A DNA stretch of 64,000 nt from a virus (taxonomy: Duplodnaviria; Caudoviricetes): positions 1,865-65,864 of the IMG/VR virus record IMGVR_UViG_3300025671_000004. The stretch is one strand, 5' to 3'. A model generated the notes under the pieces. The model saw nothing but the letters and a program-made list of their open reading frames with translations. It searched no databases and was not told the origin of the DNA. Below are positions 988 to 34,620 of the stretch, one piece after another. Each line of letters starts with the position of its first letter. Within the stretch, counting starts at the first letter, position 1. The position numbers and the translations under genes were made by a program.

Positions 988-1007
988 TGAATTTCGATTT
1001 GGTGAGG

Positions 1008-1038
1008 CAAATGTAATCAGAGGATTTTAAAAACCAAA
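1008..1038 (-). promoter_or_regulatory. Bacteroidetes housekeeping-type promoter for groEL
   Basis: TTTG-N19-TACATTTG on the - strand matches the -33/-7 consensus, 20 nt upstream of the ATG. Confidence 0.75.
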
Positions 1039-1051
1039 ATAAAATGTTGCT

Positions 1052-1360
1052 ATGTCGAAATGTCGAAATGGTTCGCCCCTTTTCTCTCTTATATACTTCC
1101 CCCTTTCTTTTTATTCTTTTTTTTTCCTCTATATAGCTTTTAATAATTAACAAAATTAACATAAGTATTAATAATCAATAAGTTAAGTAAAAAATAGCGT
1201 CATAAAAGAGACAGAAATTGTGTCGAAAAGAGAAAATTATGTCGAAAATAAATTGGGTTTAAAAAAGGGGATTTTTGGAGTGATAGTAATGCTATCGATA
1301 AATTTCTGAAGAATGTCGATTTTGAAATGGTATCCTGACGAATTTTTGTCGGCGATATGA
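1052..1360. other. Putative replication origin or terminus element (TGTCG repeats around a pyrimidine/AT-rich tract)
   Basis: At least 6 TGTCG(A) repeats flanking a T-rich then A-rich tract; resembles 14233-14400. Confidence 0.45.
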
Positions 1361-1501
1361 CGATTTTTTGGGAGAGATATGGGGGGATTTTGGGTTATAT
1401 ATATGATTTCACGGAAAAGCCCCCGATGTGAAAACGATCAAAAGTTGGGGTGGGGGGTGCTATTTTCTAAAAAAGGCTGCATTTTTTTGGCTTTTTTGCT
1501 G

Positions 1502-1950
1502 TAAGTGGCTGACTATCAATCAGTTATGGGTTCCAAAAGCCCATAGGTCAGCCGTTTTTCGTAACTCGTTGATAATCAAGCAGTTATGGTTTCGGTGGGT
1601 TTGGCTGTTTTATAGGTATCAAAGCCCGAAAAGTGTACAAATTTTGGACAGCAGCTAAGTTGCTGATTCTCAGAGTAATAGACAAAATTTTGCGTAACTA
1701 ATTGATTCTCAGCACTTTACTAAGTGCTTGGTAATCAATCACTTACAACTTTCAAGCCCTAATTTCAAACCCAATTTCGCCGAAAATCACGATTTTTCAA
1801 TCGCTGTAACTTGTTGATTTTTAGGACATTACGCCGCCCACTTGATGCCGTTGGAAGGAAAAGTGTAGACTATTTTGGACATGTTTGTCTACTATATTGG
1901 ACAAAATTTAGGTCATGCCAAAACGTAACTCGCTGATTATCAAGCAGTTA
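1502..1950. repeat. Array of seven 25-bp quasi-palindromes TAAST-N3-TGATWNTCA-N4-TTA containing IHF consensus WATCAANNNNTTR
   Basis: Copies start at 1502, 1562, 1656, 1695, 1721, 1807 and 1926; related copies lie near 1167 and 11511. Confidence 0.8.
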
Positions 1951-1955
1951 GCTTT

Positions 1956-1972
1956 TTGGCATGTCGCTTGCT
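1956..1972 (+). promoter_or_regulatory. sigma54 (-24/-12)-type promoter upstream of the early region
   Basis: TTGGCATGTCGCTTGCT has exact GG-N10-GC spacing, directly after an IHF-consensus site. Confidence 0.6.
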
Positions 1973-2072
1973 ATACATTACATGTCGCAGGATGCCTATT
2001 ATTGGTAACGGCGACTCGGAAAGGTTGCCCGATACGCAACCACTAATATAAACAAACCAAATTTATTTTATC

Positions 2073-2651
2073 ATGTCAAATTCAAATGCAAAGGTTGCGA
2101 ATGGCGCAACCAAACCAAAAACCAAAACAATTAAGCTTGAAAGCAATGAACGCGCTGTAGTCAATGCCATAAAAAATGGCATGCGCTCACTTGAAACCCA
2201 CTCTATTAATGGTCTTGAGAAAGCCGTAAACATTGGGCGCGAGTTCCTAAAATTGCGTCAATTTTGGAATGACAGATTAAGCTCGCTGTATCGTGAGCAG
2301 GGTGTTAATTGGAAACAATTCGTCTCAACCACCATTGGTAAGGACTATACATGGCTTACTAGGTTGGCGAATTGCGCCAAAATTAAGGACAGCGATGCGT
2401 CCGTTTACGAAGGGTTTCTATCAGATGCTAAAGTATTGGGCTTCCCGGTCACGCCGGAAGGGTTGATAGCTTTCGCTAATGGCAAGGATGGAAGTAAGGG
2501 CAACAAAGGTAAAACACCACCGGCGGACGTCATCCGTTTCAATGGCCTTGAGGCTAAGTTCAAGGACGGCAAGTTCGAAATAGTCAAGGGCGACCGCAAG
2601 AAGGTCGAAGCCCTTGTAAAATACTTGCAAGGCGAATTGAAGAATATGTAA
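2073..2651 (+). CDS. First early protein, basic, DUF3102-like helical region (possible nucleic-acid binder)
   Basis: 192-aa ORF with an A-rich leader; AVNIGREFLKLR...WKQFV pattern; followed by a terminator. Confidence 0.75.
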   Translation: MSNSNAKVANGATKPKTKTIKLESNERAVVNAIKNGMRSLETHSINGLEKAVNIGREFLKLRQFWNDRLSSLYREQGVNWKQFVSTTIGKDYTWLTRLANCAKIKDSDASVYEGFLSDAKVLGFPVTPEGLIAFANGKDGSKGNKGKTPPADVIRFNGLEAKFKDGKFEIVKGDRKKVEALVKYLQGELKNM

Positions 2652-2658
2652 TTCTTTT

Positions 2659-2688
2659 GAGGCGGGCTTCGGCTCGCCTCTTTTTTTT
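2659..2688 (+). terminator. Intrinsic terminator after the first early gene
   Basis: GAGGCGGGC-TTCG-GCTCGCCTC followed by T8. Confidence 0.9.
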
Positions 2689-2732
2689 CGTTCACACTCA
2701 TCACACTCATCATGTGCCGAGCTGAACGCTTT

Positions 2733-2793
2733 TTGCTGTTTTGGAAAGGTTGCGCGGACGCAACCATGTGCGGTTCGATTCCGCAGCAGCAAC
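2733..2793 (+). ncRNA. D-armless tRNA-like element 1
   Basis: Acceptor TTGCTGT/GCAGCAA, T-arm TGCGG-TTCGATT-CCGCA, middle arm is the GGTTGCG/CGCAACC hairpin. Confidence 0.6.
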
Positions 2794-2794
2794 T

Positions 2795-3016
2795 ATGGAA
2801 ACTTTAAATAAAATTCAAGCCGCATTCAACGTGTGGCACAACGGAGGTCTGCAGACCTCATCGTTTTACTCTGCGAGCGAAGATGAGGCTCGCATGGACG
2901 CGTTCATCGAGCGCTCAGAAGAGCAGCTCGAAACCAATTCGAGTTTCACCTTACTCACGTTCACCGATGAGGATGAGGCGTGGGAAGAGTGGTGTATTTA
3001 TAATGAACAATCTTAA
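2795..3016 (+). CDS. Acidic hypothetical early protein
   Basis: ATG at 2795 (METLNK...) immediately after the tRNA-like element. Confidence 0.65.
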   Translation: METLNKIQAAFNVWHNGGLQTSSFYSASEDEARMDAFIERSEEQLETNSSFTLLTFTDEDEAWEEWCIYNEQS

Positions 3017-3051
3017 CAGGTTGCGTAGACGCAACCATAAACCAAAAACAT

Positions 3052-3420
3052 ATGAAAATAAAAGTATTCTATGAATTATTCGAGCGCATTGAATCGGTGT
3101 TCGATGAGCGCGGTAACGTTAAAAGTCGCAAAGCATGCACCAAACGTGTGCTTGGTAACAAGATTGATACCACCATTAAAAATGATGGTATTCATGGAAA
3201 GAACTTAATCCTGCATGAGTATATCGGGTCTGAGTTGACTGAAGTATCAATGCCGCACCACAAAGCGGTCAGCTTAGTTGATGAGCTGTCGAAGTATTAC
3301 TTAGGGAAGGTAGCCCACCAAAATGGTGTGGAATGGAATGAAATGCTCTTTGAGAAATACCTTCATTACAGGAGCGTGTACGGAGAATTATTAGGACTTA
3401 AAAAACCACAGGTTGCGTAG
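3052..3420 (+). CDS. Hypothetical early protein flanked by 31-bp direct repeats
   Basis: 122-aa ORF with an A-rich leader. Confidence 0.7.
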   Translation: MKIKVFYELFERIESVFDERGNVKSRKACTKRVLGNKIDTTIKNDGIHGKNLILHEYIGSELTEVSMPHHKAVSLVDELSKYYLGKVAHQNGVEWNEMLFEKYLHYRSVYGELLGLKKPQVA

Positions 3421-3449
3421 ACGCAACCATAAACCAAATAATAAAAAAA

Positions 3450-3659
3450 ATGAAAAAATCAATCATTGGACTCTTGGAAGTCCTCGCAATCTACATGGCA
3501 TCTATCATATTGATAAATGCCTTTTTTATGCTACTGAGAATACTAGTATTCTTCACACTCAGCATCGAGTGGGCGGATTCTTTAGGGCTCGCAATCTTCG
3601 GGTTTTGTGTGAGCATAGTAGGAGGGTTTATCGTACTACATATTAGATATGATGAATGA
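3450..3659 (+). CDS. Small membrane protein (2 TM)
   Basis: 69 aa with two hydrophobic stretches. Confidence 0.65.
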   Translation: MKKSIIGLLEVLAIYMASIILINAFFMLLRILVFFTLSIEWADSLGLAIFGFCVSIVGGFIVLHIRYDE

Positions 3660-3918
3660 GCATTTCTCAGCTATCCGCAGGAAGTATAGTACTGCGGATA
3701 CGCGCACTTTTCGAGCCATGACCACCAAGTGGTTGAACTCGATGGAAAGTATTGACGTGAAGTCGTTGGACATTATCATGTACGACCGCAGACTCAGAGG
3801 TCTGTATAAAGTGTACCTTCAAGATGACGGCGATTACCACCTCACCAAAAGGTTGCGAAACGGCGCAACCATAAAACGTTGGAAAGTAAAAAGAAAGCAA
3901 TGGAACACAGAAAGTTAA
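3649..3918 (+). CDS. Hypothetical protein
   Basis: Coupled ORF in the early operon. Confidence 0.6.
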   Translation: MMNEHFSAIRRKYSTADTRTFRAMTTKWLNSMESIDVKSLDIIMYDRRLRGLYKVYLQDDGDYHLTKRLRNGATIKRWKVKRKQWNTES

Positions 3919-4094
3919 CGCGCGAAAGAATGGACGACCACCATGCGTGGTTGTACCAAGGTGCGATATCCGAAGAGGAGGCGAGAATGCTTCAGATCGA
4001 AAGCGGATACCACCCGAATGGATATGGTTTCTTTGAGTTCAAGTTGAACGCAGATGGAACCACAAGTTGGAAGTGTTGGGATTCATGCGATTGA
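3900..4094 (+). CDS. Hypothetical protein
   Basis: ATG at 3900; GYHPNGYG...WKCWDSCD. Confidence 0.65.
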   Translation: MEHRKLTRERMDDHHAWLYQGAISEEEARMLQIESGYHPNGYGFFEFKLNADGTTSWKCWDSCD

Positions 4095-4095
4095 T

Positions 4096-4380
4096 ATGGT
4101 GAAGTTCAAGATATACCAAGTTGGCGACCAAATAATGGTCGAGAAACCAACTGCAGGCGAGCCATGCGTATTCATGAGCAAAATGAACCTATTTGAGATG
4201 TTTGTATCCGTATCTGATACGTTCGAGGTCGTCATAGACTCATACACCCATTTATACATGGGCGAGTTCAAGTGCGATGTAAAGCCAAACAAGAGACGTT
4301 GGATGTTTAGGATACTCAGTTGGACAGAACAGATTATTGCTTACCAAAACCAAAAGAGATATGAGATACCGAGTAATTAA
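4096..4380 (+). CDS. Hypothetical protein
   Basis: ATG 1 nt after the previous stop. Confidence 0.6.
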   Translation: MVKFKIYQVGDQIMVEKPTAGEPCVFMSKMNLFEMFVSVSDTFEVVIDSYTHLYMGEFKCDVKPNKRRWMFRILSWTEQIIAYQNQKRYEIPSN

Positions 4381-4672
4381 ATCAACCATTGATGAGTCGT
4401 TCGACATCATCACAGAGAATGGCGGAGTGGCGTACTTCCACTACGCTGACGACAATTTCGTCACAAAGTACTTCACGAGAGGTCTTAGTGACTGCACTAA
4501 TTCAGACTATGTATGGGACGAACTATCCGAGGGTAAAATTTACACCAAGGATTGGGAGGGCACACCGACCTTTGACGAGGTGGTCAAAGATGCTTTGGGA
4601 TGGCTTGTCTTCCCCGAACCCGAGACATGGGAGCATGACGAGAATTTATGGACTGAGATTTTCCCTAAGTAA
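4361..4672 (+). CDS. Acidic hypothetical protein
   Basis: ATG at 4361; packed in the operon. Confidence 0.65.
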   Translation: MRYRVIKSTIDESFDIITENGGVAYFHYADDNFVTKYFTRGLSDCTNSDYVWDELSEGKIYTKDWEGTPTFDEVVKDALGWLVFPEPETWEHDENLWTEIFPK

Positions 4673-4711
4673 AACAAGGTTGCGAAATCGCAACCATAAA
4701 AATCAAATCAA

Positions 4712-5029
4712 ATGAAAAAAATGTCATTCGCTAGAGTGAAGTCCCTCCAAAAGTTGGCAGGGTACTCAGAGATGCAAGACTTAATCGACAGCGGTCTTGC
4801 ATGGAAATTAGAAGGGTCTGTCGGTCGTTCGGCTATGGACTGCCTAAGGTCGGGAGCATGCATGCTTCCGCTGCAGGTTCACTATGATGCCTATGGTAAT
4901 CGAATACCATCGAGGCATGAAATTGTTCCGGGAAGCACAGGTTCATTCAAGCTATCCCAACAATTTTGGGAAGAGAACGAAGACCTTGCATGGGCTGACC
5001 TATATGAAGAAGAGGAGGAACACGCATGA
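4712..5029 (+). CDS. Hypothetical protein
   Basis: 105 aa; LIDSGLAWKLEGSVGRSAM and DAYGNRIPSR motifs of a recurring phage family. Confidence 0.75.
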   Translation: MKKMSFARVKSLQKLAGYSEMQDLIDSGLAWKLEGSVGRSAMDCLRSGACMLPLQVHYDAYGNRIPSRHEIVPGSTGSFKLSQQFWEENEDLAWADLYEEEEEHA

Positions 5030-5265
5030 GTAAACGACCTATCTACAAGATTGCAGATGAAATATCTGCGAAATGGCCAAAACCATACTTTGGTGCTGAG
5101 CCATACTTAAGAGCAATGCGATACGTTTCGGCACCCGAAGATAGATTCGGGCATGACAATGGACGAACGTTAGCTATATACTTCCTTGCCAATGCGCAAA
5201 GTTTTAGGGGAAATGATGCCCGAAGATTGAAAGCAGAGCTGAAGTCTGTCTGCGACATTAAATAG
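5026..5265 (+). CDS. Hypothetical protein
   Basis: ATGA overlap; YFGAEPYL...YFLANA...RG..ARRLKAELK pattern of a recurring phage family. Confidence 0.75.
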   Translation: MSKRPIYKIADEISAKWPKPYFGAEPYLRAMRYVSAPEDRFGHDNGRTLAIYFLANAQSFRGNDARRLKAELKSVCDIK

Positions 5266-5271
5266 ACTTCA

Positions 5272-5354
5272 TTCCGGTAATGGTTGGGCGCGTATTAAAA
5301 TCAGTAACGCGAAAGAGATGCTTGCCCATGGGTTCGACTCCCATGCCGGAGCCA
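5272..5354 (+). ncRNA. D-armless tRNA-like element 2
   Basis: Acceptor TTCCGGT/GCCGGAG, T-arm ATGGG-TTCGACT-CCCAT, middle arm closed by GGGC/GCCC; fills an intergenic gap. Confidence 0.6.
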
Positions 5355-5371
5355 TTTTTAAAAACAAAACA

Positions 5372-5665
5372 ATGAGAAAAATTACACAACAAGCAATCGA
5401 TGCCTTCAATGGTAACAAGCCATTCAAGAGCGGAAACACAGAAATCGAGGTTGCCTCAAGGGCAACCATCATGAAGCTATTCGGTAACGAAATAGCTTTC
5501 AAGTATCACGAAGACAACTCTCTATGGATAACCAATTGCGGTTGGGACTCAGCCACCACAAAGGATAGACTCAATGCCTTAGATGGGGTAAGTATCCAAC
5601 AAGCCAAAGGTAAATGGTACCTCAATGGAGAGTTATGGAACGGCAAAATCATTCAAATAAAATAA
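5372..5665 (+). CDS. Hypothetical protein
   Basis: MRKITQQ...GW..ATTKDRLNAL; A-rich leader. Confidence 0.75.
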   Translation: MRKITQQAIDAFNGNKPFKSGNTEIEVASRATIMKLFGNEIAFKYHEDNSLWITNCGWDSATTKDRLNALDGVSIQQAKGKWYLNGELWNGKIIQIK

Positions 5666-5666
5666 T

Positions 5667-6023
5667 ATGAAAAAGCAATTAGAGCGTTTGATTCACCTAT
5701 CGGAACACTACTGCGAAGTGACTAGGTTGTTACTCGATGGTAGGGATGGTCACCTTTCCGTTACAAGTTCGGCAAAACAGCTCATGACCACAAGGGATAC
5801 ATTGACCGATATCCCTATCGAGTCTACAACGAGGATAACTGTTTATCAAGATGTTAACTGTCGAGATAGAACAGGATTCTGTGTTGAGTTTGATGACATT
5901 GAGGTAAGGTTCTTTGGGCGTAAAGCCGAAGTTACCACGACCATTCTCAGCGAGAGAGAGTACTCGGAGATATCTGCAGAAGCATTAAGAGTTCTTAAAG
6001 CCTTAAAGAAATGGACAAAGTAA
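5667..6023 (+). CDS. Hypothetical protein
   Basis: Operon-packed ORF. Confidence 0.65.
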   Translation: MKKQLERLIHLSEHYCEVTRLLLDGRDGHLSVTSSAKQLMTTRDTLTDIPIESTTRITVYQDVNCRDRTGFCVEFDDIEVRFFGRKAEVTTTILSEREYSEISAEALRVLKALKKWTK

Positions 6024-6250
6024 TCACACTCATAGAGCCCTCTGTAGGTTGCGCGTTCGCAACCATAAAGCAACGCAGGTTTTACTTAGCCACGCTGATG
6101 TCTATGTATGTACACCTATCATCGATCTTCGAAGGGTTTCGATCCTTCCATGTAGATGGTGGTGGCAAGATTAGGAATGGGTGTAGGCTTGTGGTTAGGA
6201 CAAAGGGCGGCGAAATTACGTTGTATGTTTCAATAACAGACTTGCTATGA
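6011..6250 (+). CDS. Hypothetical protein
   Basis: Overlaps both neighbours; contains a hairpin copy. Confidence 0.55.
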   Translation: MDKVITLIEPSVGCAFATIKQRRFYLATLMSMYVHLSSIFEGFRSFHVDGGGKIRNGCRLVVRTKGGEITLYVSITDLL

Positions 6251-6732
6251 GTACACCTAGATACTATATCATTTGGATCGAAGGTCTTAACGTTAGAAGT
6301 GGAGAGAAGATACTCTCCATTTCTGACGATGGTATTGAGTATACCACCTCCATGAGTCGGGCATTGCGAGTCAAACCTCGTGACCTCTTAGACTTTGTCG
6401 AGAGAATCAGACCATTCGTTTCTGAATGGGCTATCAAGTCTCCTTCAACCTATGTGCCAACCGAGTACGCAAAGAAGGGCACGATATGGATGTTGAATGG
6501 GCCTCGAACGAGGATAAGTAATAAACCTCCAAAAAGGAATCCATTCGGTCTCGCAGCTCTCGATGTAAACAAGTGGACGTACTATGGGTGCGTGATAGAA
6601 TTGAGGGAAGACAACCCCGATCCGGATGAACGATACATGGTCACAAAGAATGGCGTCCTTGTTGGCTATGGTAGATTTTTTGAGAACGCCAAAAGTATAT
6701 GCAGGCAATTTGCAAATTATAAACACCAATAA
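6247..6732 (+). CDS. Two-domain hypothetical protein; C-terminal domain resembles 19329..19541
   Basis: ATGA overlap; W.Y.GC.I motif. Confidence 0.65.
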   Translation: MSTPRYYIIWIEGLNVRSGEKILSISDDGIEYTTSMSRALRVKPRDLLDFVERIRPFVSEWAIKSPSTYVPTEYAKKGTIWMLNGPRTRISNKPPKRNPFGLAALDVNKWTYYGCVIELREDNPDPDERYMVTKNGVLVGYGRFFENAKSICRQFANYKHQ

Positions 6733-6742
6733 AAAAAACAAA

Positions 6743-7069
6743 ATGAAAAAGACATTCACATTTATTTCCATGTCAACAGATGCAGAGTGGGATAGCATCG
6801 ACTTTGACACAGTCATTGTAGACATGAACAAGCAAGACGAAGATGCGATCAAGTTGGCTAGGAAGTTCGCCATGAACAATGCCATTGTATCGCTAAATGT
6901 TAAGTGTACCTCCGGTGTAGAGTACATGGAAGATAGAGAGGAAGCGCATCCGGAGTGGCCACATGATGGGTTCGAGTACTTGATACTCAAGGATTCAATC
7001 TTTCTGTATGCAGAGAATTCGTACAACCCAAGCAGTAATATAGAACTTATGTTGGAGGATGACTTATGA
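6743..7069 (+). CDS. Acidic hypothetical protein
   Basis: ATG at 6743 after an A-rich leader. Confidence 0.7.
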   Translation: MKKTFTFISMSTDAEWDSIDFDTVIVDMNKQDEDAIKLARKFAMNNAIVSLNVKCTSGVEYMEDREEAHPEWPHDGFEYLILKDSIFLYAENSYNPSSNIELMLEDDL

Positions 7070-7388
7070 TAAATACGATATGGATATAATAGAATCAAAC
7101 AAAGTAATCGCCAAGTTCTTAGGCTACAATGTAGTAGATAAGCCAAAGGTAGTAAACGGAGAAAACTTCTTTGAGTATTTTGACGAAGAGAAAGGGTACA
7201 GCATATGTGGTACATCTCTAAAGTTTCATTACTCATGGAATCACCTCATGCCGGTCATTGCGAGGTTGACCTCGCTCGTCCCAATTGAAATATCGCAGGG
7301 CATCACACCCTTCATGCTTCTTGACAATATCGGTAGAGTGCATGCAGAGGTGGTTGAAATAATTCAATGGTACAACCAAAATAAATAA
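7059..7388 (+). CDS. SWxxLMPV-motif phage protein, paralog 1
   Basis: ESNKVIAKF...FHYSWNHLMPV...IIQWYNQ. Confidence 0.75.
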   Translation: MTYDKYDMDIIESNKVIAKFLGYNVVDKPKVVNGENFFEYFDEEKGYSICGTSLKFHYSWNHLMPVIARLTSLVPIEISQGITPFMLLDNIGRVHAEVVEIIQWYNQNK

Positions 7389-7390
7389 TC

Positions 7391-7681
7391 ATGAACACAA
7401 CAGAATCAAACAGACTCATAGCTGAGTTTATGGCAGGTGGAGACAGTCTCTACCTGCAGAGAGACTACATCACAGAGCAGTACTACCCTTTCGACTCCAA
7501 GGAATTAGCGTTCCATATCTCATGGGATTGGCTAATGCCGGTGGTAGAAAGAGTATCGTCAATGATTTACGGTGGAACGGTGTACGATTTACGAGGGGCG
7601 CTACTTAATGCAGACATCGATCGTGTGTACAAAGAGCTTGTAGAGATAATTGAATGGTATAACCAAAAGCAAACATCATGA
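7391..7681 (+). CDS. SWxxLMPV-motif phage protein, paralog 2
   Basis: ESNRLIAEF...FHISWDWLMPV...IIEWYNQ. Confidence 0.75.
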   Translation: MNTTESNRLIAEFMAGGDSLYLQRDYITEQYYPFDSKELAFHISWDWLMPVVERVSSMIYGGTVYDLRGALLNADIDRVYKELVEIIEWYNQKQTS

Positions 7682-7920
7682 ACAAGTGGGAATTAGAAAT
7701 GGCCGGTGGTGACGAGAATATACTCGTCAGACAAATCAATGGCCGAATAACAAAAGCAAGGTACAAGCTCATCAATAGATGGGCGCGAAGGAATAGTGTT
7801 CGATCGGAGTATTGTGGGTGCCCGCACGACTGCTGTGGGTGCCATGTGCGGACTTGGGTAGATGTAGAGTTTACCAAGAGTGGAGCTACACTAACGATGA
7901 CAGAGTGCTTTAATTACTAA
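7678..7920 (+). CDS. Cys-rich small protein, probably metal-binding
   Basis: CGCPHDCCGC motif. Confidence 0.7.
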   Translation: MNKWELEMAGGDENILVRQINGRITKARYKLINRWARRNSVRSEYCGCPHDCCGCHVRTWVDVEFTKSGATLTMTECFNY

Positions 7921-7929
7921 TATAGACCT

Positions 7930-8163
7930 ATGATAAAGATTGAAAACCAAGCATCGCTGAGTTGGTACACTAGCGATGTACGAGCAGCAGTAGACTTCCT
8001 GCCGAAAGAAAAGCAGAAGAAGTTTTACCAAATTGTAGGTGAGTCTGACAGGGACTTGCGTACCTATTTTGAATGCCTACTTGAAGACAGGCAGGACATT
8101 ATCATTCAGTTTATTAACGATCAGATTGCAGACGCAGTCAACCAAACAATAGAATCAATATGA
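7930..8163 (+). CDS. Hypothetical protein
   Basis: Operon-packed ORF. Confidence 0.65.
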   Translation: MIKIENQASLSWYTSDVRAAVDFLPKEKQKKFYQIVGESDRDLRTYFECLLEDRQDIIIQFINDQIADAVNQTIESI

Positions 8164-8345
8164 CAACTTGTTATCCAATCTACGAAGTGGTAAACATCCA
8201 CACCGGTGAAACAGAAAGGGAATTCGAATACGAGATAGATGCCATTGACTGCATAAACTTCGAATTCTCATGGGAGACCCATCATGTTTCATACTATATC
8301 CCATATGATATACTCATGTCGGGTAATTTGAACACCGCTAATTAA
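8160..8345 (+). CDS. Hypothetical protein
   Basis: ATGA overlap. Confidence 0.6.
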   Translation: MTTCYPIYEVVNIHTGETEREFEYEIDAIDCINFEFSWETHHVSYYIPYDILMSGNLNTAN

Positions 8346-8351
8346 AACAAT

Positions 8352-8630
8352 ATGAAAAAGCTATACATTACATTAATCGAGAGGGACAACGGTGAATGTC
8401 CTAACATTGGAACCATAACAGGTTGCGACAACGCAACCATAACCCGCAATGCCTTCAAGGCTTTAGAGTCCCACTTTGATGCAGAGGTGACCGGAATACG
8501 CATACAGGACGGAATGAAGTTTAAGGATGCGGAGAATAGCCCTCCATTAGATGCGACAGTTTCGCTGAATATCGATGGGGATGTGAGTCTTCATGAAATT
8601 GAAATACATCAAACATGGCTTTATGAGTAA
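8352..8630 (+). CDS. Hypothetical protein
   Basis: 92-aa ORF containing the last hairpin copy. Confidence 0.65.
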   Translation: MKKLYITLIERDNGECPNIGTITGCDNATITRNAFKALESHFDAEVTGIRIQDGMKFKDAENSPPLDATVSLNIDGDVSLHEIEIHQTWLYE

Positions 8631-8868
8631 GAAAAAACAATTCACACCTCTAGAATATGAGGTAATCAAGATCATTGGATATGGTGACGAGTTTGCCGCG
8701 TCATTTAACGACATCATGGCTGAGTTCACAGGGTCACCAACCCAACTAAAGGGTGTGTTGTCATCCCTATTCCAAAAGGATGCAATAACACAAGGCGAGT
8801 ATCCGGGTGGAATCACATCATACCACCTAACAGAAACGATCACATCATACCTTGTTAGCAAAACTTAA
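8623..8868 (+). CDS. Small winged-helix-like protein; C-terminus apparently altered by an insertion
   Basis: TPLEYEVIKII...QLKGVLSSLFQK helix pattern. Confidence 0.6.
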   Translation: MSKKKQFTPLEYEVIKIIGYGDEFAASFNDIMAEFTGSPTQLKGVLSSLFQKDAITQGEYPGGITSYHLTETITSYLVSKT

Positions 8869-9093
8869 TTATTATGAACGAAAAGATATATTTCCAACCT
8901 GACTTCAGAAACGATGACACTTTAATTACCCCTGACGGAGTTGAATTATGGAGTTACTATGTGTATGCTAATTTTGATAATGCACGAAAGGATTTCCCTG
9001 ACAGGCAAATAATTGCATATAAAGGTGATGATATAGAAAACCCATACTTTATTGATGGTGATGGTAACTACTAATTGTTGCTAACAGAAACGA
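8827..9093 (+). mobile_element. Inserted single-gene cassette
   Basis: 13-bp direct repeat CTAACAGAAACGA (8827-8839, 9081-9093) and inverted GTTAGCAA/TTGCTAAC around an AT-rich ORF. Confidence 0.65.
8874..9074 (+). CDS. Cassette-borne hypothetical protein
   Basis: 66 aa, visibly more AT-rich than its neighbours. Confidence 0.7.
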   Translation: MNEKIYFQPDFRNDDTLITPDGVELWSYYVYANFDNARKDFPDRQIIAYKGDDIENPYFIDGDGNY

Positions 9094-10639: not shown

Positions 10640-11136
10640 TGAAAGAAGTAGAAGTAGAACAACTCACAGAGAGTTTAATCAGCAAGCACGATCTAGATGA
10701 TTGGAGCTTTCGCCTAGGCAATACAAGAAGAGCTATTGGGCGATGTATTCATCGCAAGAAGCTCATTGAGATAAGCCGGCATTACATACCACTCTTGTCA
10801 GATGACGAAGTCAAGGATATTATCTTGCATGAGATTGCGCATGCTATTGCAGGGTACAATGCGGGGCACGGACCAAAATGGAAGAAGGTCGCCAAGATGA
10901 TTGGGGCAGACCCAACAAGGTGCGCGGACATTCCGCCGGAACGAACTCCACATGGCAGATACATGTTGGAGTGCGCGAACCATGGCTTGCTTGGTTATAA
11001 TCACAGACTAAGCCAAAAGGCAAAGGATGCGTATAATAGAGGATCATGTCACTATCTTTGTAAGAAGTGCAAGACACCGGTCATTATCACAGACCTAGTC
11101 ACAGGAAGGAAATATGAATCAAAAAGATCATTATAG
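10639..11136 (+). CDS. SprT-like zinc metalloprotease
   Basis: GRC, HEIAH, GHGPKWK and C-terminal Zn-ribbon CKKC. Confidence 0.88.
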   Translation: MKEVEVEQLTESLISKHDLDDWSFRLGNTRRAIGRCIHRKKLIEISRHYIPLLSDDEVKDIILHEIAHAIAGYNAGHGPKWKKVAKMIGADPTRCADIPPERTPHGRYMLECANHGLLGYNHRLSQKAKDAYNRGSCHYLCKKCKTPVIITDLVTGRKYESKRSL

Positions 11137-11407
11137 GATATCAATAGACAGCGTACAGCATTGGCGAGTCATGCTCTCTGACGAATACAGAACAGGTAAG
11201 GTTTTCGCATTATTCACTTCACTAAAGAAGGAAGATGTTCGAATACCAAGGTATGTGATGGAGCATTACAACTACGCGTTCTATGGTGTTGATGACGAAA
11301 AGCTTTGGAACCTAATAAGAACAGGCAAGACTGTCAACACAGACGATGGAGATATGATAGTAGTGGCCATAGAAAAGATACCCGGAGATCCTATGATTCT
11401 CAATTAA
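11114..11407 (+). CDS. Hypothetical protein
   Basis: Last ORF before the terminator. Confidence 0.6.
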   Translation: MNQKDHYRISIDSVQHWRVMLSDEYRTGKVFALFTSLKKEDVRIPRYVMEHYNYAFYGVDDEKLWNLIRTGKTVNTDDGDMIVVAIEKIPGDPMILN

Positions 11408-11468
11408 GATATACCCTGCGGATGCATGCAGGGAAGTTTGGTTTGTCATTATTGTTTTGTTACTGTTG

Positions 11469-11500
11469 ACCCGGTGGTGCATCACGCCGGGTTTTCTTTT
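11469..11500 (+). terminator. Intrinsic terminator ending the early operon
   Basis: ACCCGG...CCGGGT followed by TTTCTTTT. Confidence 0.75.
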
Positions 11501-11577
11501 AGAAAAAATGTAACGATTTGATTTTCAATAAGTTAAACAATATTTAGGACAACGTTCTCATTTTCAGTAGTTTTTTA

Positions 11578-11585
11578 TATATTTG
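11578..11585 (+). promoter_or_regulatory. Bacteroidetes -7 promoter element for the replication block
   Basis: TATATTTG 9 nt upstream of ATG 11595; an IHF-type palindrome lies at 11511-11535. Confidence 0.65.
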
Positions 11586-20778: not shown

Positions 20779-23700
20779 TTAATCTTTCTTAGATCGATCC
20801 ATTCGTCTTTCCATCTCCTTGACTCTTCCCGATGGCGAGTCTTTTCCATACAATCTTTCGTATAGGTCCGGATACTCCTCCTTGAGTTTGCTCTTGGGCA
20901 TTGTTGGATTCTTCTTCTCCTTAATGATGTCTTTGTAGATCATGGTGTTCATAATCATTCTAACATCTGCGTAGAATGGAACGTATCCAAGGTTCCCCGC
21001 CATCTCAATGACAGCTCGGTAATTCTCTAATTCATCCCTCTTGATTGCGTCAATCTCTACCTTTTCCTTTTCGACTAGTTGCTTTCCTGCAAACTCCATT
21101 GTTCTCAAAATTGGAGACATTGGCCCCATGATATTCATCATGATATCCATCATCATATTCCTTCTAGGATCGGGCTGAATAGGAACAATTGTATACGCGA
21201 TCTTATCTTCATACGCATCGTAATCACCATCCCTAAGCATATCTAGATACTTCATGTTAATGTACTCGACATTCATATTGATGAAGGTCTTGGCTATGTT
21301 ACCAAAGTCTCTTCCTAATATCAAGCCCGATACACCCGATACCACGGCGCGACCGAAGTCTAATGTAGTATACTCGTCATCATCTCCCGATATTAATGAT
21401 CTAAGCGCTCCGGAAAGATACTGAGTCAAGGCAGAGTAGATCACCATACGAGTTGCTACTGCGGTCATGATTGCGGCACCTTGTCTAGGTGTTATGTCAC
21501 CCCTTCCGATTGCTGCGTACATGCCATATCGGAATGAGTTGAACTCATACACAAGGAATCGCGTCATGTAGTTGTTGAATATGTGAAGTATCTGAGAGAA
21601 TGCCGATCCATTGATTGGTCTACTTTTCGCCGCAGAAAGAAATGGATTGTCAGATGCACCTAATAGCACAGATTTTTTGTCGGCCATTTTTCTAGCCGCA
21701 TCCAATGCATCTTGGTTTTCTGAGATGTACTCTTGATCGTTGTTCTTGATCTTTTCAAAGTCTATATCCTTTCCCGATTGTTTCTTAAACTCCTTGGCTA
21801 GGGCCCCAAACCAAAATGGTCTCATGATAGCTTGGTCGGGGGTGGTGATCATTTTGTCTGCGATCACCTCTGATGCATCTCGAATAGACCCAAGACCAAC
21901 GCCTCTCACTTTGAATGACCCAATTTGCTGAGCCTTATTGAGGATGTCATTCTTGGCTCTCGACCTATTAACGCTTCCTGCATCATCTTTCAATGTGCCA
22001 TCAATCATCCTCCCTGTAAGTGTACCTTGTGGGTATATCCTAGACAACTGAACAGATCCAACGTTTTCCGCTATGGCGACACCATCAGGGCTAGAATATA
22101 TCGATGCGTACTTCATGCCCGAGAAAAAGGATTTCGAATCAACCAACATAGCAAAAGCCGCGTTTGATAAAAATTCAGATATTGCTCGTGTTGACTTGGC
22201 TAGGACTGCTCTGTATCCCCACTTTGAAAGATATGAAGTAACGTCATCCATGAATGTTGTTTCATGCGTTGATGACATCAGCACACTCTCTACGGCAGAT
22301 TTGTGAGCCATTTTTATAACATCGAAGAGTTTCTCTTTCTCGGCCTTCTGCTTCCTCTTCTCCTCTATCCTTTTTTCTATGAGCTCCTTATCTTCTTTCG
22401 ATGCAGATTCTAGTTGGCTGTTCAAGTCTTCCAACTCTTTTGCAAACTTCTTCTTTATTTCATTTTCCGTGTTTCTTATCGTTCTATAAGATGTCCTCAC
22501 AGGCTCAGTCATATAGTAGTCCATGAACACATCTCTAGCTGCCGTAGACACAGACTTAAATGCGTCAAAGTCAATCGGATTAACCTGCCCTGTTCTCTCC
22601 TTTATGATGCCTGTTCTTGTCGATGGATTCATCGCATTCATGGCGTTTTGGGATTGAGTTAACTGTACACCGCTTGCGCTTGGGTCGACAATTACTGACA
22701 GGTGGTTGTAGGCATTCAATGGCTTCATGCCCTCTCCATGAACAACTAAACCAAGATGGGTGGCCAATGGGAGCAGGGATTGATTTATCTTCTCGATTGA
22801 TCTTATGGCATTTCGCTCTGCCCTGTTTAATGAGTTCTCTATTTTTTGAAGATCGATTTGACCGTTTGTAGAAAAGTCCTTCCTTATCCTCTTCAGAATC
22901 TCCGCATCCTTCTTAGTGTAATCTCCTTTTTCTGCTTCTGCATACTCGATTGTTGCGTCCAAAAACTTTATTGCGGGATTTACCTTGCTATTACCGGGGT
23001 TGTTTTCAAATTCCTTCTGAATTAGGTACGCGGTCATCTTGTACTTGGATTCGGTCACACTATTGTGATTGTAGGAAAAAGCCTCGTACAGCTTTTTGTC
23101 CAATCCCGACAAGGTCTCCAACACCTTCTTGTTCTCTGTCTTGAATCTACTGTGACCTATTGCGGTATTTTCAAATAGGGTGTTGTATATGGTCGGTGTT
23201 TTGAAGTCTCCAAAAACTTGATCTATAAAGTATAGTGGAGTTCTTTCGGCCATCACCGTATACTTATTCTTACCTTTAGAGAACAAAGCTTTAGCGCTCG
23301 CAATAACCCTGCTTATGAGCAATGGCTTTGCATTCATTACCGATTCCGCCAACTCTATTGTAGCTCTTCTAGACTCGATCCTCTCAACCAATACTTGTGT
23401 TACGTTGTGAGCGTACCCATTATTGGCATTGTCTACTACCTTTTGAAGTTTCTTTAGGTCGGATGGCGACATTTTCATCATGGCCTCGGTATCCTCTATC
23501 AGTTTTTTCAATCTTCTGAGTAGGGCCTCTTCAGCTTTTGGCAAACCTTCGGGTATACTAAGCTTGAGGGACATGATGTCACTTATTATACTCCTACGCT
23601 CTGCGTCAAGCTCTTGATCTGTCATGGTGTCTGAGACCTCATTTGATAGTATGGATAGCTTCAGTCGCACCATCATATCTCTTTCTTCGATGGTAATTAT

Positions 23701-26700
23701 ACCATCGTTCACCATCTTATCGAGCGTCTTCTCGTACATCAATTTACCATCAGAAGACATCACTTTGTCAGAGTAATCTTCAAACGCCATCTGAAGGTCC
23801 ACAACTCGTGCATTTTCTGCATCAACTGCATCCATCACCGTGGTTACTCGGTCAACCAACTCTCTAGCCTCTCCAAGATCCAACACGGCTGCACTCGTTC
23901 CCAACTCCTCTACTATCGAGATGTACTCATCCATGACAGATGGTGGGATGGATTTCTCAGAGATTGAAAGCATTTTGTCAACCAATGCATTGTATCCAAA
24001 GAGGCTTCCTAACTTCTTCTTGATGTTGTCCTTGGCCTTTTTACGCATCACTTTAAGCTTTGCAGACCTATCCTTGTACTCTTCGTTCTTTACAACGTTG
24101 GATACAAAGTCAGCAAACGCTCTTATGGATGCGTCAGATGCAGGATTGACTCGGCTAAATCTTTTGAGGATTTTACCCGCTTGGCGCATTGTCAACTTCT
24201 TCTCCTTCACCAATTCGTAAACCTCTTTTGCCAACCTTTGTTGAACGGCCAACACAGCTCTGATACCACGGCCTTGAGTTCTTATCTGAGAAGAAAGGGC
24301 TTGTTTCGCTGATATGGTTATGTTCTCGACATCAAATGTTTGACCCAATATGGTGCTTGCCTTTGGTGACTTCCTAATTGAATACCCATGATTCATCGTA
24401 GTAAGCATCACAGCCCTATTCCTAGTAATATCGTCTGCCTTTTTGTAGAAATCGCTAGCCTCCAATATCTCTATGGCCTTTGCAAGTATATCTCGTTTCT
24501 TGGCACCCTCATCAGCCATGGTGTTGTAGTTTTTCTTGATGCGACTTGCTACAGCTTTGTAGCCTTCTTTCTTCGACATCTCTTTCTCTAACTCCTCTTT
24601 CTTTCTCTGCTGTCTAACAACATTCATGCTTGACTTGGGGGGTTCTGCACCAATCATCTTATTCTCAAACTCGGTTGCCCTACGACTTGCCAAGCGATCG
24701 AATTCAGCTTTGCTCATGTATATCTTATCCTCTTCAGCAACATCCTCTGTTTCGGAAAGAGCTAAGTTGTCGAGTTCCCTTTGACTTAGGTTCATCCTTC
24801 TTCGAACGTTGTTGGCATCAACTTCACCCGCAAAACTTTTGTAAACATCATGCAGCATGCTCCGTGCCGTCTTCGGCCCCATTATGGTGTATATCTTTGC
24901 TAAGTTTCTCTGCTCTTCATAGTTCAGATACCTTAATGCAGCCAACTTGTTTCCTCCCCAAGGCATGTCCTCTATGTATTGTATGGCATGTTGGATTTCA
25001 TGCAACATTGTTCCTTTTAGGGTATCCTCAAAATCAGAAAGGCGTGAAAATACCTTTCTCATGTCCGTGGATATCTTCTTGGGGGTTCCCGCATAATCTT
25101 TCGCCCTTCTCTCATTTCCTTGTACCAAGATTTTAATCATATCGTCAATGGCGCCATTGACATCATTATCGGGACTCGAGTTTTTTATAATGAAGTCCAT
25201 TGTTTCTCTCTCTAGCCTTCTCATAAGAGGGCTGTCGGGGATTTTTGAACCTTTTTTAGCGAATGCTAAATGCTCTGAGACCCTAGCGATATACTCTCTC
25301 ACAGCTAGTGGAAAACTGTCATAGACTCTCTGTACTACGTTCGCAGAAATTATACTACTCCTGAGGGCTTTGAAGTTTTCCTCACCATCGGTTTCTTGTG
25401 TTGGAACCACGACCGTAATCAATTGGGTGTCAGTCCTTCCGACCGGAGTGCTATACTCCCCTGCAAACATGCTGTATATGCCCGAATCCCCTCTCCCTGT
25501 TTCGCTAATCATTAGTTTGAATGGAATGTTCTTTATGGAAGGATAGTGCTTGAATAGCTCGGGGTGATCTATTACATCCCCCACAGTCAGATCCTTCTTG
25601 CTCATAGCTATAACATCTTCAACATCCTGCCAAGATCTAACATCTAATTTAATCCTAGCATCACGGTCACTTATTTCAAACATCCACTCAGAATTAGCGG
25701 CTTTGTAAAAGCTAGTCAACGCTTTGATCTTCTTAGCGGACTCACCGGCGGCATCCATCTCCATGGCTTTGCGCTTCTTGTCTGCTAACTCTGTAGACAG
25801 GTTTGCATTCTTGGAGCCAATGTACTTTCTAACCCTGTTCTCAGACTCCATCTCTTCTTCTGTTCTGAGTTCAAGCGGGGTGTTAGACTTGGCGTACTCA
25901 ATCCTCTCCTCGATTTCTTGTATCTTCCTGTTGACTTCTTGCCTTTTATTTGATGGAAGTCCTTTTCTAGATTTTTTAAGGTCATCAATCAATGTGTTTA
26001 AGGCGGATATGTATGCATCTAAAGTTACCTTTGGCTTTTCTTTTGCAGGCGCCTTTGGCTTTTCTTTTGCAGGTGCCTTTGGCTTTTCTTTTGTACTTGG
26101 TTTAGTTGGTGTTTCTTTTTTCTGAGCTAATGAAACGTTAGCTATTGCATCTGTAAAATTCTTAAATCTTCTCTTAGGCGTCCCTGTTGGTGAGTCAGAG
26201 ATAACAAAACCAATAGGAGATCCGTCAGTCAAGACAGATTCGCTCCTGTCTATAATAAAACCACTACCGGATGGCGATGTGTATGACCAAACCGATTCCC
26301 CTTTTCTGTTTTTACTTTCTTGTTTTATTTCTGCATCTCCAAACTTCTCAACTTGTCCTACTTTTTCTTCGGTTTCAGTTTTTGGAATCTCAGCTTTCGT
26401 CTCCTTTGGCGTAGGCTTTTTCTTCGCTGCAGGCTTTTTCTTCGCTGCAGGCTTTTTGACGGCGGGTTTTTTGGCAGCGGGCTCTTTGACGGCGGGTTTT
26501 TTGGCAGCGGGCTCTTTCTTTACGGATGGCTCTGCCCCCATCATTGTTCCGCCTAATAAAGGACCAAAAGCTTTAGAGCTTATTCTACCATCAAGAAAAT
26601 CCTTTTGAACAACTCTATCTTTCGGATCCCCTTCCCTCATTACAAACCTCTGAACTATTTCCCCATCGGCATTCTTGTAGTAGATCACATTTACGCCATT

Positions 26701-33057: not shown

Positions 33058-34620
33058 TTATTGTTCTGCTACAATTTCGTCAAGTTCATCAAATATATCA
33101 CCGTCCGAACCACCGCCTTGTTGTGCGCCGGTATCCAAGTCCCTAATTGAATTAAGACCTAGTCCTGTCACAATATCATTTGTAGACAGGTATGTTGACA
33201 TATAGGCTGCCAATCCATTCAGATTTTCGCGCATTTCCTCTTGAACACTTTCATATTCCGGAAGAACCTTACCCGCGTTCTGTTTGTCGGAAGATGGGTA
33301 GTATTTCAATCTACGCGTTGGAACGGTATATCCCGCACCACCTGCACCAAGTGGGACTACAACAATTTTATCTCCGTCTTTTTTGAAGTCAAAGTATGAC
33401 GCATATCCACCCAATGCTGTCTGAAGTTGAGGGATACTTACCGATGGATCTCTGTCAATCATTTGAGGAGATAATTGGGCCTTCATCTGCTCAGTTACCA
33501 CACCCCTACCTTTTGAAGTTAGAGCGTCAATGTATGCCTCGCGCTCTTTGTCTGTCATTTCACCATAACTCTTAGTGGTGGTAGGTGGTGTTTTTGTAGT
33601 ACGGCCACCCGAGTAGTTGTACTTAGGTATAGAATCCTTCTTAATGCTTCGATCTAGCATTGTTCTAAACCTTTCCCTCATCGCGTCTTCGGCCTCCTTC
33701 TTCTGATCAGGGTCAATCTTCGGAACAGGGTTTCCGTTCGGATCATACCCAACCAATATCTTCTTCTTATCCTTCTTAGCCTCTTCCGGGTCCCAAGTGA
33801 ATGAGTACCCCAAAGCATTATAAAGAATATCAGAGGCATTGTATGGATTGGATAGCATGCTTTCAATAAAAAGCTTCTCAGATTTCTCGAAATCCTCTTT
33901 TTCCATGACATCCTCCACGGTTTCAAAGTAGCCTCCCGAAATCTGCTTGATTATTTCCTTTCCAAGTCTATCTGCGCCACTACTCAGCACGGCATCAAAA
34001 TCATATTTGTCGTACTCAGTCTTCAATATGTTGTTCATCACGTTCATAGGCATGATGTTACCCGGAGATGTATCTACCTCCATCTCGCCTGTTTTTTCGT
34101 TCTTCTTGAACTTGGCGACACCAACTTGACTGTTGAGAGGGTTGACGTATACGCGCATGTTTTTGAAATCGGTGTAACCTTCAACACCCTCCATCAAGAA
34201 GGATTCAAAACCCATGCTTTTATTATTAATACTCCTCTCTAGCTTTTTTGAGTACAGCTCATTGTAACCTTTAAACGCATTTATAACACCATCGGCACCA
34301 TCGAATAGTTTCTGACGGCGACTCGTGTAATCTTGAATGGTTATATCCCCTGCGTTGAGAAGTTTATTCAGCATCAACATGCCTTGAGAAAGCTGATTTG
34401 ATGCATTCATTATCGCTTGATTAGCATCTACGTCATCTCCTAACTCGATAGAGGAAACCTTCTGCACATAATCATCAGATGACTTTCTAAGTTCAGCTTT
34501 TTGCTTCTCCCTTGCAGAGGCTTCATCCTTTATGGATTTTGATACGGAATCAGTTACAGAGGACCAATCTATAAGTCGGTCAAGATCCCTTTCTTTCCAA
34601 CCGAAAAAACTATTAGCCAT
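33058..34620 (-). CDS. Putative internal virion (ejection) protein
   Basis: 520 aa, helical, located between the small core protein and the giant protein. Confidence 0.65.
   Translation of the reverse strand: MANSFFGWKERDLDRLIDWSSVTDSVSKSIKDEASAREKQKAELRKSSDDYVQKVSSIELGDDVDANQAIMNASNQLSQGMLMLNKLLNAGDITIQDYTSRRQKLFDGADGVINAFKGYNELYSKKLERSINNKSMGFESFLMEGVEGYTDFKNMRVYVNPLNSQVGVAKFKKNEKTGEMEVDTSPGNIMPMNVMNNILKTEYDKYDFDAVLSSGADRLGKEIIKQISGGYFETVEDVMEKEDFEKSEKLFIESMLSNPYNASDILYNALGYSFTWDPEEAKKDKKKILVGYDPNGNPVPKIDPDQKKEAEDAMRERFRTMLDRSIKKDSIPKYNYSGGRTTKTPPTTTKSYGEMTDKEREAYIDALTSKGRGVVTEQMKAQLSPQMIDRDPSVSIPQLQTALGGYASYFDFKKDGDKIVVVPLGAGGAGYTVPTRRLKYYPSSDKQNAGKVLPEYESVQEEMRENLNGLAAYMSTYLSTNDIVTGLGLNSIRDLDTGAQQGGGSDGDIFDELDEIVAEQ

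Follow-up and report, generated by a model that had tools for sequence, protein, structure and literature searches.

We analysed a 64,000-nucleotide (nt) stretch of phage DNA (the window), which comprises bases 1865-65864 of the 65,864-base-pair (bp) virus record IMGVR_UViG_3300025671_000004; the record carries terminal repeats, and the phage DNA was found in freshwater and aquatic metagenomes. Among the early genes of this phage lie two short elements, here termed E1 (2733-2793) and E2 (5272-5352), which retain the acceptor stem and T arm of a transfer RNA (tRNA) without its decoding part. From their sequences and by analogy with known RNAs, we consider it an even call that they are tRNA-derived 'top-half' mimics that act in cis in early transcripts, either as sites of cutting by ribonuclease P (RNase P) and ribonuclease Z (RNase Z) or as stabilising signals. 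The parts of E1 given in a preliminary description of this DNA were confirmed base by base, as was the single nucleotide between the end of E1 and the ATG at 2795, and the locus reads as follows:

2659-2690, plus strand: intrinsic terminator after the gene at 2073-2651, with a 9-pair G+C-rich stem and 8 T.
2733-2739, plus strand: 5' strand of the E1 acceptor stem, TTGCTGT, pairing with 2786-2792.
2740-2747, plus strand: unpaired joiner TTTGGAAA, which contains GG and stands where a D arm would be.
2748-2765, plus strand: central arm GGTTGCG-CGGA-CGCAACC, one copy of a repeat hairpin (GGTTGCG-N4-CGCAACC).
2766-2768, plus strand: linker ATG.
2769-2785, plus strand: T arm TGCGG-TTCGATT-CCGCA, which fits the GGTTCRANYCC motif of plant t-elements.
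2786-2793, plus strand: 3' strand of the acceptor stem, GCAGCAA, and discriminator C; CCA is not encoded.
2794, plus strand: T, followed by ATG 2795-2797.
2795-3016, plus strand: open reading frame (ORF) of 73 amino acids (aa), opening 1 nt after E1; its start at ATG 2795 is putative, from the open frame and gene callers only.

The acceptor of E1 is held by six Watson-Crick pairs and one T.G pair. Its central arm has a 7-bp stem and a 4-nt loop and is not an anticodon arm, because a loop of 4 nt cannot be an anticodon loop. When the 61 nt of E1 are folded alone, the three-way junction described above is both the minimum-free-energy (MFE) and the centroid structure (-25.1 kcal/mol; z -2.84), and one of 200 shuffles folds equally well. 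The ATG at 2795 is unconfirmed as a start, since its 73-aa product is without a homologue: a homologue search with the ORF at 2741-3016 returned only itself, and alternative in-frame starts lie upstream at GTG 2768 and TTG 2741. In a permissive Rfam scan of 2640-2860, several small RNA models match the terminator at 2659-2690 only. Between the terminator and E1 the 10-mer TCACACTCAT stands twice in tandem (2692-2710), and it recurs at 6024-6033 (plus strand), 14 nt before the repeat hairpin at 6047; it is not over-represented across the window, with 7 matches at one mismatch against 5.25 expected.

E2, which is absent from the preliminary description, was recovered on the same strand as E1 as the second match to a strict structural descriptor (defined below). 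It is 81 nt long and lies in the gap between an ORF at 5026-5265 and a gene at 5372-5665:

5272-5278 and 5345-5351, plus strand: acceptor strands TTCCGGT and GCCGGAG, with 2 T.G pairs.
Between the acceptor 5' strand and the T arm, plus strand: a joiner with GG, then a long irregular central arm.
5328-5344, plus strand: T arm ATGGG-TTCGACT-CCCAT.
5352, plus strand: discriminator C.
5372-5665, plus strand: the gene after E2, whose start at ATG 5372 is confirmed by the alignment of its residues 1-70 with positions 1-70 of the Pfam profile Kyano_Gp96.

An A-rich leader of 19 nt separates E2 from ATG 5372. There is no repeat-family hairpin in E2, and no promoter or terminator of its own was found around it, the element lying within a string of genes. 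E2 is retained in the MFE structure of its 161-nt context and has moderate pair probabilities in longer contexts. With the first U.G pair of E2 unpaired, its last base would be G and the next three CCA (5351-5354), an RCCA-like 3' end; nothing comparable is seen in E1.

The strict descriptor asks for a T stem of five Watson-Crick pairs, closed by G-C and carrying a TTCRANN loop, and for an acceptor of seven pairs, at most two of them G.U, immediately 3' of that stem; it was defined after E1 had been seen, so the significance it yields is inflated. It matches the 65.9-kb genome twice, where dinucleotide shuffles average 0.0027 matches each; of 1500 shuffles four contained at least one match and none contained two or more. 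Applied to 692,408 bases of unrelated loci, which hold five tRNAs, the same descriptor gave three matches, all genuine tRNAs by ARAGORN. Because its matches in unrelated DNA are true tRNAs only, E1 is a tRNA-related sequence and not a coincidence. The case for mere chance is that the descriptor was written post hoc and that a looser version of it gives three matches against 0.21 expected, with at least one match in 58 of 300 shuffles. Set against this are the strict counts, the lack of any false positive in 692 kb of real DNA and the location of both strict matches on the coding strand of the early block, in intergenic gaps and within one 3-kb stretch, which together make a chance resemblance of E1 and E2 to tRNA exceedingly improbable. 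The third loose match (11450-11542, plus strand, in the gap after an ORF at 11114-11407) is A+T-rich sequence round a strong terminator with three Watson-Crick T-stem pairs, and was judged to be chance. In E1 and E2 together, all 24 acceptor and T-stem pairs can form (21 Watson-Crick, 3 G.U and no mismatches) and both T loops read TTCGAYT, while no D stem or 7-nt anticodon loop is left.

ARAGORN, which the preliminary description had named as a check on E1, and the Rfam models recognise neither element as a tRNA or a tmRNA (transfer-messenger RNA). By default ARAGORN calls no tRNA or tmRNA gene in the window, Rfam has no match there at gathering thresholds, and the tRNA model RF00005 has none in the whole genome at E values up to 10. 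E1 and E2 are called by ARAGORN only when its threshold is lowered to 80%, with poor arms, E1 being drawn with a two-base 'anticodon'; a tmRNA call on the opposite strand at a 70% threshold was rejected as spurious. Both elements have the 7-bp acceptor stacked on a 5-bp T stem with a TTCRANN loop that a tRNA requires, and neither has the 5-bp anticodon stem and 7-nt loop with U33 and a purine at 37; for E2, even the model that ARAGORN fits best has mismatches in the anticodon stem and an A at position 33. We rejected tmRNA in the absence of an ARAGORN call for either element and in view of the scores of their T arms, that of E1 (17 nt) matching by itself a tmRNA-clan model at 10.2 bits (E 0.72, in the permissive Rfam scan of 2640-2860) and that of E2 matching by itself RF00023 with 11.2 bits (E 0.0064), whereas the gathering scores are 70 and 47. 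Nor does either element have G3.U70, the identity mark for alanine and a criterion for tmRNA: the pair at 3-70 is G-C in E1 and C-G in E2. What both elements carry is the GGTTCRANYCC T-arm motif by which t-elements are recognised (GGTTCGATTCC in E1, an 11-mer that occurs once in the window, and GGTTCGACTCC in E2), set in a non-canonical fold with an acceptor-like closing stem. The tRNA-like geometry claimed for E1 in the preliminary description therefore holds in so far as it exceeds chance and follows the plan of a t-element or a tmRNA domain, but it is that of neither a full tRNA nor a full tmRNA.

A bacterial Y RNA was also considered and rejected, there being no YrlA match to either element at E values up to 10 and no TROVE domain, such as a Ro60 gene would encode, among the subset of ORFs that was scanned. 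The same fate befell the core of a phage attachment site (attP): the 21/22-mers of the 3' halves of E1 and E2 have no exact match in 185,579 species genomes or in IMG/VR, and there is no integrase among the scanned ORFs. An attP core is further disfavoured by the presence of the 5' acceptor strand, for which it would have no need. Since neither 3' half has an exact match, E1 and E2 are not fresh captures.

Relatives of the E1 locus were found by aligning contigs from two other studies on 2400-3200, where three related haplotypes span 2505-2801. One of them, the X19 contig (10.8 kb, depth 82), has 16 listed differences in the ORF upstream, 14 of which fall at third codon positions, a bias that marks the upstream gene as real and shows considerable silent-site divergence of the relatives. 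Between 2660 and 2771 the only listed differences lie at 2729-2730 (at 2729-2732, 2720 and 2722 in one haplotype) and in the hairpin loop, where all four E1 bases, 2755-2758, differ in the relatives. The acceptor 5' strand, joiner, hairpin stems, linker and first part of the T arm are free of listed differences, which reappear at 2729-2732, immediately 5' of the acceptor. Beyond 2801 the DNA of the relatives is unrelated and opens with an A-rich run and a further ATG. As judged from these alignments, terminator, spacer, E1 and ATG form one conserved cassette, to which different genes are attached downstream. The ATG that directly follows the E1 hairpin opens a frame of 13 codons (2766-2807, plus strand) which runs through the T arm and across ATG 2795; in the relatives the different downstream DNA apparently also stops in frame at the same codon, which may be a coincidence in A+T-rich sequence.

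Wider searches added nothing to this set. Protein-based searches of viral contigs, started from the genes on either side of E1 and from the gene that follows E2, yielded no relative; in phages blastn of 2000-4000 gave no match, and blastn of the E1 and E2 regions gave chance-level matches only (E 0.3-4). An exact search of viral contigs for the hairpin with its ATAA flank returned no match; in metagenome contigs a search for the hairpin followed by 8 nt and TTCGA returned 110 stretches, and all 114 matches inspected were unrelated, mostly G+C-rich bacterial sequences without the flanks of E1. Alignment of E1 with E2 by MAFFT puts the acceptor strands out of place, and no covariance model or pair count was drawn from it.

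The genome in which these elements lie is laid out as follows:

1-987, leftward: chaperonin gene (Cpn60).
1.1 kb between the chaperonin gene and the early block: repeat-rich control region.
2073 to about 20767, rightward: small early genes and replication genes.
Remaining block, leftward: structural genes (terminase, portal and a 4091-aa virion protein).
1008-1015 (minus strand), 11578-11585 (plus strand), 33090-33097 (minus strand) and 43163-43170 (minus strand): TAnnTTTG boxes just upstream of the chaperonin, recombination, giant and structural genes, respectively.

The same plan is seen in the uncultured phage MW202828.1, which is the closest GenBank relative (primase 68.9% identical, gene order shared), and in the Flavobacterium phage Elemovirus, and the phage is an Elemovirus-like podophage. 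A-rich leaders that lack a Shine-Dalgarno sequence stand before its start codons, and several of its middle and late genes are preceded by TAnnTTTG, which we take to be the -7 box of Bacteroidota promoters; on the strength of these two sequence features the host is probably Flavobacterium or another member of the Bacteroidota. There is no TAnnTTTG on the plus strand from 1000 to 8900, and the early genes therefore seem to be started by different means. The control region (990-2075) is free of genes and separates the leftward chaperonin gene from the rightward early genes; it contains an imperfect palindrome of about 25 nt four times (at 1502, 1562, 1721 and 1926) and, between 1045 and 1248, many words of the TGTCGAAA type, whose TGTCG is also the half-site of a palindrome repeated in MW202828.1. 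The 4091-aa virion protein (20779-33054, minus strand), which has equivalents of 3859 and 3694 aa in related phages, shows weak matches to GNAT acetyltransferase (about residues 1720-1816) and LPD23 (2413-2468) and resembles a 'polyvalent' injected protein.

The hairpin at the centre of E1 is one of a family that is dispersed over the early genes:

2023-8438, plus strand: hairpin family with a 6-bp core, GGTTGC...GCAACC, in 10 copies against 0.01 expected.
2023, 2093, 2748, 3019, 3411, 3851, 4678, 5449, 6047 and 8421, all plus strand: starts of the copies.

The stems of these hairpins are invariant, their loops are variable and 4-7 nt long, and ATAAA follows most copies. Half of them (2023, 2748, 3019, 3411 and 4678) stand 15-31 nt upstream of the ATG of an ORF; four (2093, 3851, 5449 and 8421) lie inside listed ORFs, and that at 6047 follows a stop codon. 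The family may serve as a promoter, an operator or an RNA site. The preliminary description had used E1 to tie the whole family to a function at the RNA level, a step which does not follow: only the copy at 2748, one of the ten, lies in a tRNA-like frame, so E1 gives the family no such role, and E2 contains no copy at all. MW202828.1 has a family of its own in the same block (7746-19155 in L005), an invariant and perfect 16-bp palindrome in 14 copies, and no such hairpin or palindrome family was found in Elemovirus.

These repeats raise the prospect that E1 is a DNA-level promoter or operator cassette built round the hairpin, comparable to that of coliphage N4, whose tRNA-like flanks are incidental scrap and never occur together in one RNA. 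In keeping with such a cassette, the hairpin stands 29 nt before ATG 2795, within the 15-31 nt spanned by the four other copies that precede an ORF; its stem is invariant and its loop free to vary both within the genome and between relatives; the terminator upstream calls for a new transcription start, and no TAnnTTTG box supplies one on the plus strand between 1000 and 8900, though several precede middle and late genes; and MW202828.1 repeats its own palindrome 14 times in the corresponding block. The virion RNA polymerase promoters of N4 are described as hairpins with a 3-nt loop and specific purines, and they have, like the family here, a short stem of 5-7 bp, conserved stem bases, a position before early genes and an A run before the start (PMC4496689, for the features described there). 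Unlike them, the hairpins of this family have loops of 4-7 nt that are free to vary, and several lie inside ORFs. We rejected an N4-type hairpin promoter as such, because the loop differs from that of N4 and because comparison of the 4091-aa virion protein and the other scanned ORFs with PHROGs, Pfam and PDB sequences revealed no phage RNA polymerase, a fold too remote for sequence search aside. The broader cassette explanation leaves E2, which has no family hairpin, unexplained, along with the continued pairing of acceptor strands 46 nt apart; given also the missing polymerase and the four or five hairpins of ten that lie inside ORFs, we think it unlikely.

MW202828.1 contains two tRNA look-alikes of a different kind. 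A match to the descriptor at record positions 523-629 led, on reading further, to a second element in tandem:

523-630 of MW202828.1, plus strand: look-alike 1, unannotated, 47.3 bits with the Rfam tRNA model.
637-697 of MW202828.1, plus strand: look-alike 2, unannotated, 37.2 bits with the Rfam tRNA model.

Both scores exceed the Rfam tRNA gathering score of 29. ARAGORN calls neither look-alike, and only under its intron option does it produce a model of the first, a poor 'tRNA-Leu with a 17-nt intron'. The D and T arms are perfect in both, and the acceptor is intact in the first (7/7) and has one mismatch in the second (6/7). The damage falls on the anticodon arm, where 46 nt replace the loop in the first look-alike and 5 nt replace the entire 17-nt arm in the second. 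A terminator follows the pair, at the end of the rightward block. The look-alikes share with E1 and E2 the phage group, the coding strand, the kept acceptor and T arms and the unusable anticodon arm; unlike E1 and E2 they keep a canonical D arm, pass the Rfam tRNA threshold and do not precede a start codon, and they have no sequence likeness to E1 or E2 outside the T loop. Elsewhere in the group, relative L007 has a normal tRNA-Arg 15 nt before an ATG and Elemovirus has a normal tRNA-Met. By sequence, then, some members of the phage group have normal tRNAs, and in others there are four elements that have kept the acceptor and T arm and lack a usable anticodon arm.

The four elements could on this evidence be decaying tRNA genes, wrecks of insertion into or replacement of their middles that have no present function, with the constancy of E1 explained by a recently exchanged cassette. 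Relatives carry normal tRNAs in similar spots, the distribution is patchy, and tRNA-likeness is graded, from the 47.3 and 37.2 bits of the MW202828.1 elements to E1 and E2, which the tRNA model does not match even at E 10. A single swap of the D and anticodon arms for the repeat hairpin would leave the acceptor and T arm of E1 intact without any selection, and the region 2660-2801 is uniformly constant with sharp borders, silent-site divergence on its left and unrelated DNA on its right. Even decay is, however, an unlikely source of E2, in which nothing typical of a D or anticodon arm is left in the 49-nt centre, yet 31 acceptor and T-arm positions show no flaw. All three non-Watson-Crick pairs of E1 and E2 are G.U with no mismatch among them; the anticodon arm is damaged in four of four elements and the T arm in none; the four changed loop bases show that the E1 block has had time to change; and the 3' halves, being without an exact match, are not fresh captures. 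Since decay would have been so uneven, with all 24 stem pairs and both T loops intact and the D and anticodon features gone, selection on the top half is supported, and we regard functionless wrecks as a possible but rather doubtful explanation of the four elements.

Returning to the reading of E1 and E2 as processing signals, RNase P, RNase Z and the CCA-adding enzyme all recognise the acceptor/T helix and the T loop, and this reading, the most economical one, gains from the second element, E2, and from the two in MW202828.1. E1 and E2 would keep the coaxial helix of acceptor and T arm (12 bp) with its T loop, which may dock on the joiner's GG, having lost the D arm and the anticodon loop. 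We infer that both are transcribed within rightward early transcripts and fold there in vivo, where host enzymes that make tRNA ends would mistake them for precursor tRNAs. RNase P would then cut at 2732/2733 and 5271/5272, and the 3' cuts, behind the discriminators at 2793 and 5352, would be made by RNase Z or through an exonuclease route. Such cuts would split the early RNA, free a small stable RNA and set the 5' end of the downstream message, with a leader of 1 nt for the gene at 2795 and an A-rich leader of 19 nt for the gene at 5372. The centre of E1, the repeat hairpin of the phage, would be a separate module. The 'almost leaderless mRNA' foreseen for E1 in the preliminary description is weakened by the 19-nt leader after E2 and by the further ATG that follows an A-rich run in the relatives.

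A number of observations weigh against processing of this kind, the fold of E1 in context among them. The E1 structure is absent from the MFE structure of the 141 nt at 2690-2830, in which other pairings displace the acceptor and T arm, and within 2700-2830 and 2690-2830 the acceptor pairs form with a mean probability of 0.07-0.28. In 2660-2900 and 2600-3000 the mean is 0.77-0.87, and in these 240- and 400-nt contexts the E1 structure is again the MFE structure, with mean pair probabilities of 0.68-0.90 over the three helices; since the fold depends on the stretch chosen, thermodynamics neither proves nor rules it out. A strong terminator ends 43 nt upstream of E1, and the interval between them has no recognisable promoter, a search there for TAnnTTTG being empty. 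If the repeat hairpin is itself a promoter, transcripts would start inside E1. E1 and E2 both start with U and encode no CCA, and the agreement in pairing between them is built into the descriptor that found them. Because the stems are invariant in the three haplotypes, there is none of the covariation of acceptor and T stems that the preliminary description had named as a test in homologues; 2660-2801 is nearly constant as a whole, its differences confined to two 4-nt clusters, and a recently exchanged cassette fits this as well as selection does. Differences within about 30 nt of the ends of aligned pieces are unlisted, and those for 2772-2801 are known as totals only: none in record 11, one in record 12 and up to six in X19 record 7, the last figure shared with 2505-2534. 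The Elemovirus genome has no look-alike element of any kind, and no RNA run is listed as containing sequence of 2000-5000. A search of the phage for the RNase Z family gave no match, a result that is not informative on the host.

E1 and E2 might instead act in trans as small RNAs, either as a sponge or decoy for a factor that holds the elbow or acceptor of tRNA or as non-decoding pseudo-tRNAs, with a tRNA-directed defence nuclease or toxin, the CCA-adding enzyme, RNase P and EF-Tu as candidate targets. Most proteins that handle tRNA grip it by the top half, which all four elements retain. Phage tRNAs are described as countering tRNA-cutting defences, and the defences treated in that account act on anticodon loops or stems (PMC12445682); bacterial Y RNAs, in the account of PMC4201824, use tRNA-like modules outside translation. 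The elements offer no anticodon loop or stem motif to the known anticodon nucleases, and as none of them has a 7-nt anticodon loop, the decoy for tRNA-targeting defence nucleases suggested in the preliminary description is unlikely where anticodon nucleases are concerned. Family scans of about 45 ORFs revealed no partner gene, and E2, without a promoter or terminator of its own, lies inside a string of genes 19 nt before a start codon. We accordingly give a trans-acting role for E1 and E2 little credence. An elaborated form of it, which we would rate a slim prospect, is that Elemovirus-like Bacteroidota phages make anticodon-less top-half RNAs, stable and small, which sequester or mislead in trans a host factor that grips the tRNA elbow or acceptor (a tRNA-directed defence enzyme or the tRNA-end machinery, for example), and that a phage protein bound to the E1 hairpin controls both excision of the element and translation of the next gene from the one-base leader.

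With four elements in one phage lineage, what has been kept is the tRNA part gripped by RNase P, RNase Z and the CCA enzyme, without the decoding part. Should these be cutting signals, they would provide a testable rule for shaping early messages in a phage without leaders of the Shine-Dalgarno type, and gene finders that ignore sub-threshold tRNA look-alikes would be overlooking a class of phage regulatory RNA. Should they be wrecks, they would form a record of the death of phage tRNA genes from the anticodon arm outwards. The papers found by full-text literature search concern organelles, RNase P, Y RNAs and RNA viruses and do not describe tRNA-like processing signals in phage protein-coding transcripts.

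Punctuation of messages by tRNA-shaped RNAs is textbook knowledge for mitochondria. Non-tRNA substrates of RNase P are also known from phages: the C4 RNA of P1 and P7 and the CI RNA of P4, which are antisense or immunity RNAs, are cut by way of an acceptor-like helix, end in RCCA and lack the canonical T arm that E1 and E2 possess; E1 and E2, for their part, have no consistent CCA. With the tRNA-like domain of tmRNA (RF00023, RF01851), E1 and E2 share an acceptor, a GG joiner in place of the D arm, one long helix and a T arm, and unlike tmRNA they lack an mRNA-like part, pseudoknots, a tag frame and an encoded CCA. YrlA RNAs resemble them as tRNA-like modules that serve outside translation; one member with a 7-bp acceptor is described as being cut by RNase P and receiving CCA, and the family also occurs in phages (PMC4201824). 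As described there, the ends of YrlA RNA form a Ro-binding stem and the tRNA-like part is internal, unlike the arrangement in E1 and E2.

The closest worked-out case is that of the plant mitochondrial t-elements, which were found through the T-arm motif GGTTCRANYCC and whose ends, in the examples described, coincide with mRNA ends, one of the associated mRNAs having its 5' end at +2 of the start codon (PMC1920247). Like E1 and E2, the t-elements of that account have a non-canonical fold, closed by an acceptor-like stem and including a T arm that is conserved, and they lie on the coding strand between or before protein genes (PMC1920247). E1 and E2 differ from them in belonging to a phage of a bacterium and not to an organelle and, in the case of E1, in having as single central arm a repeat of the phage itself.

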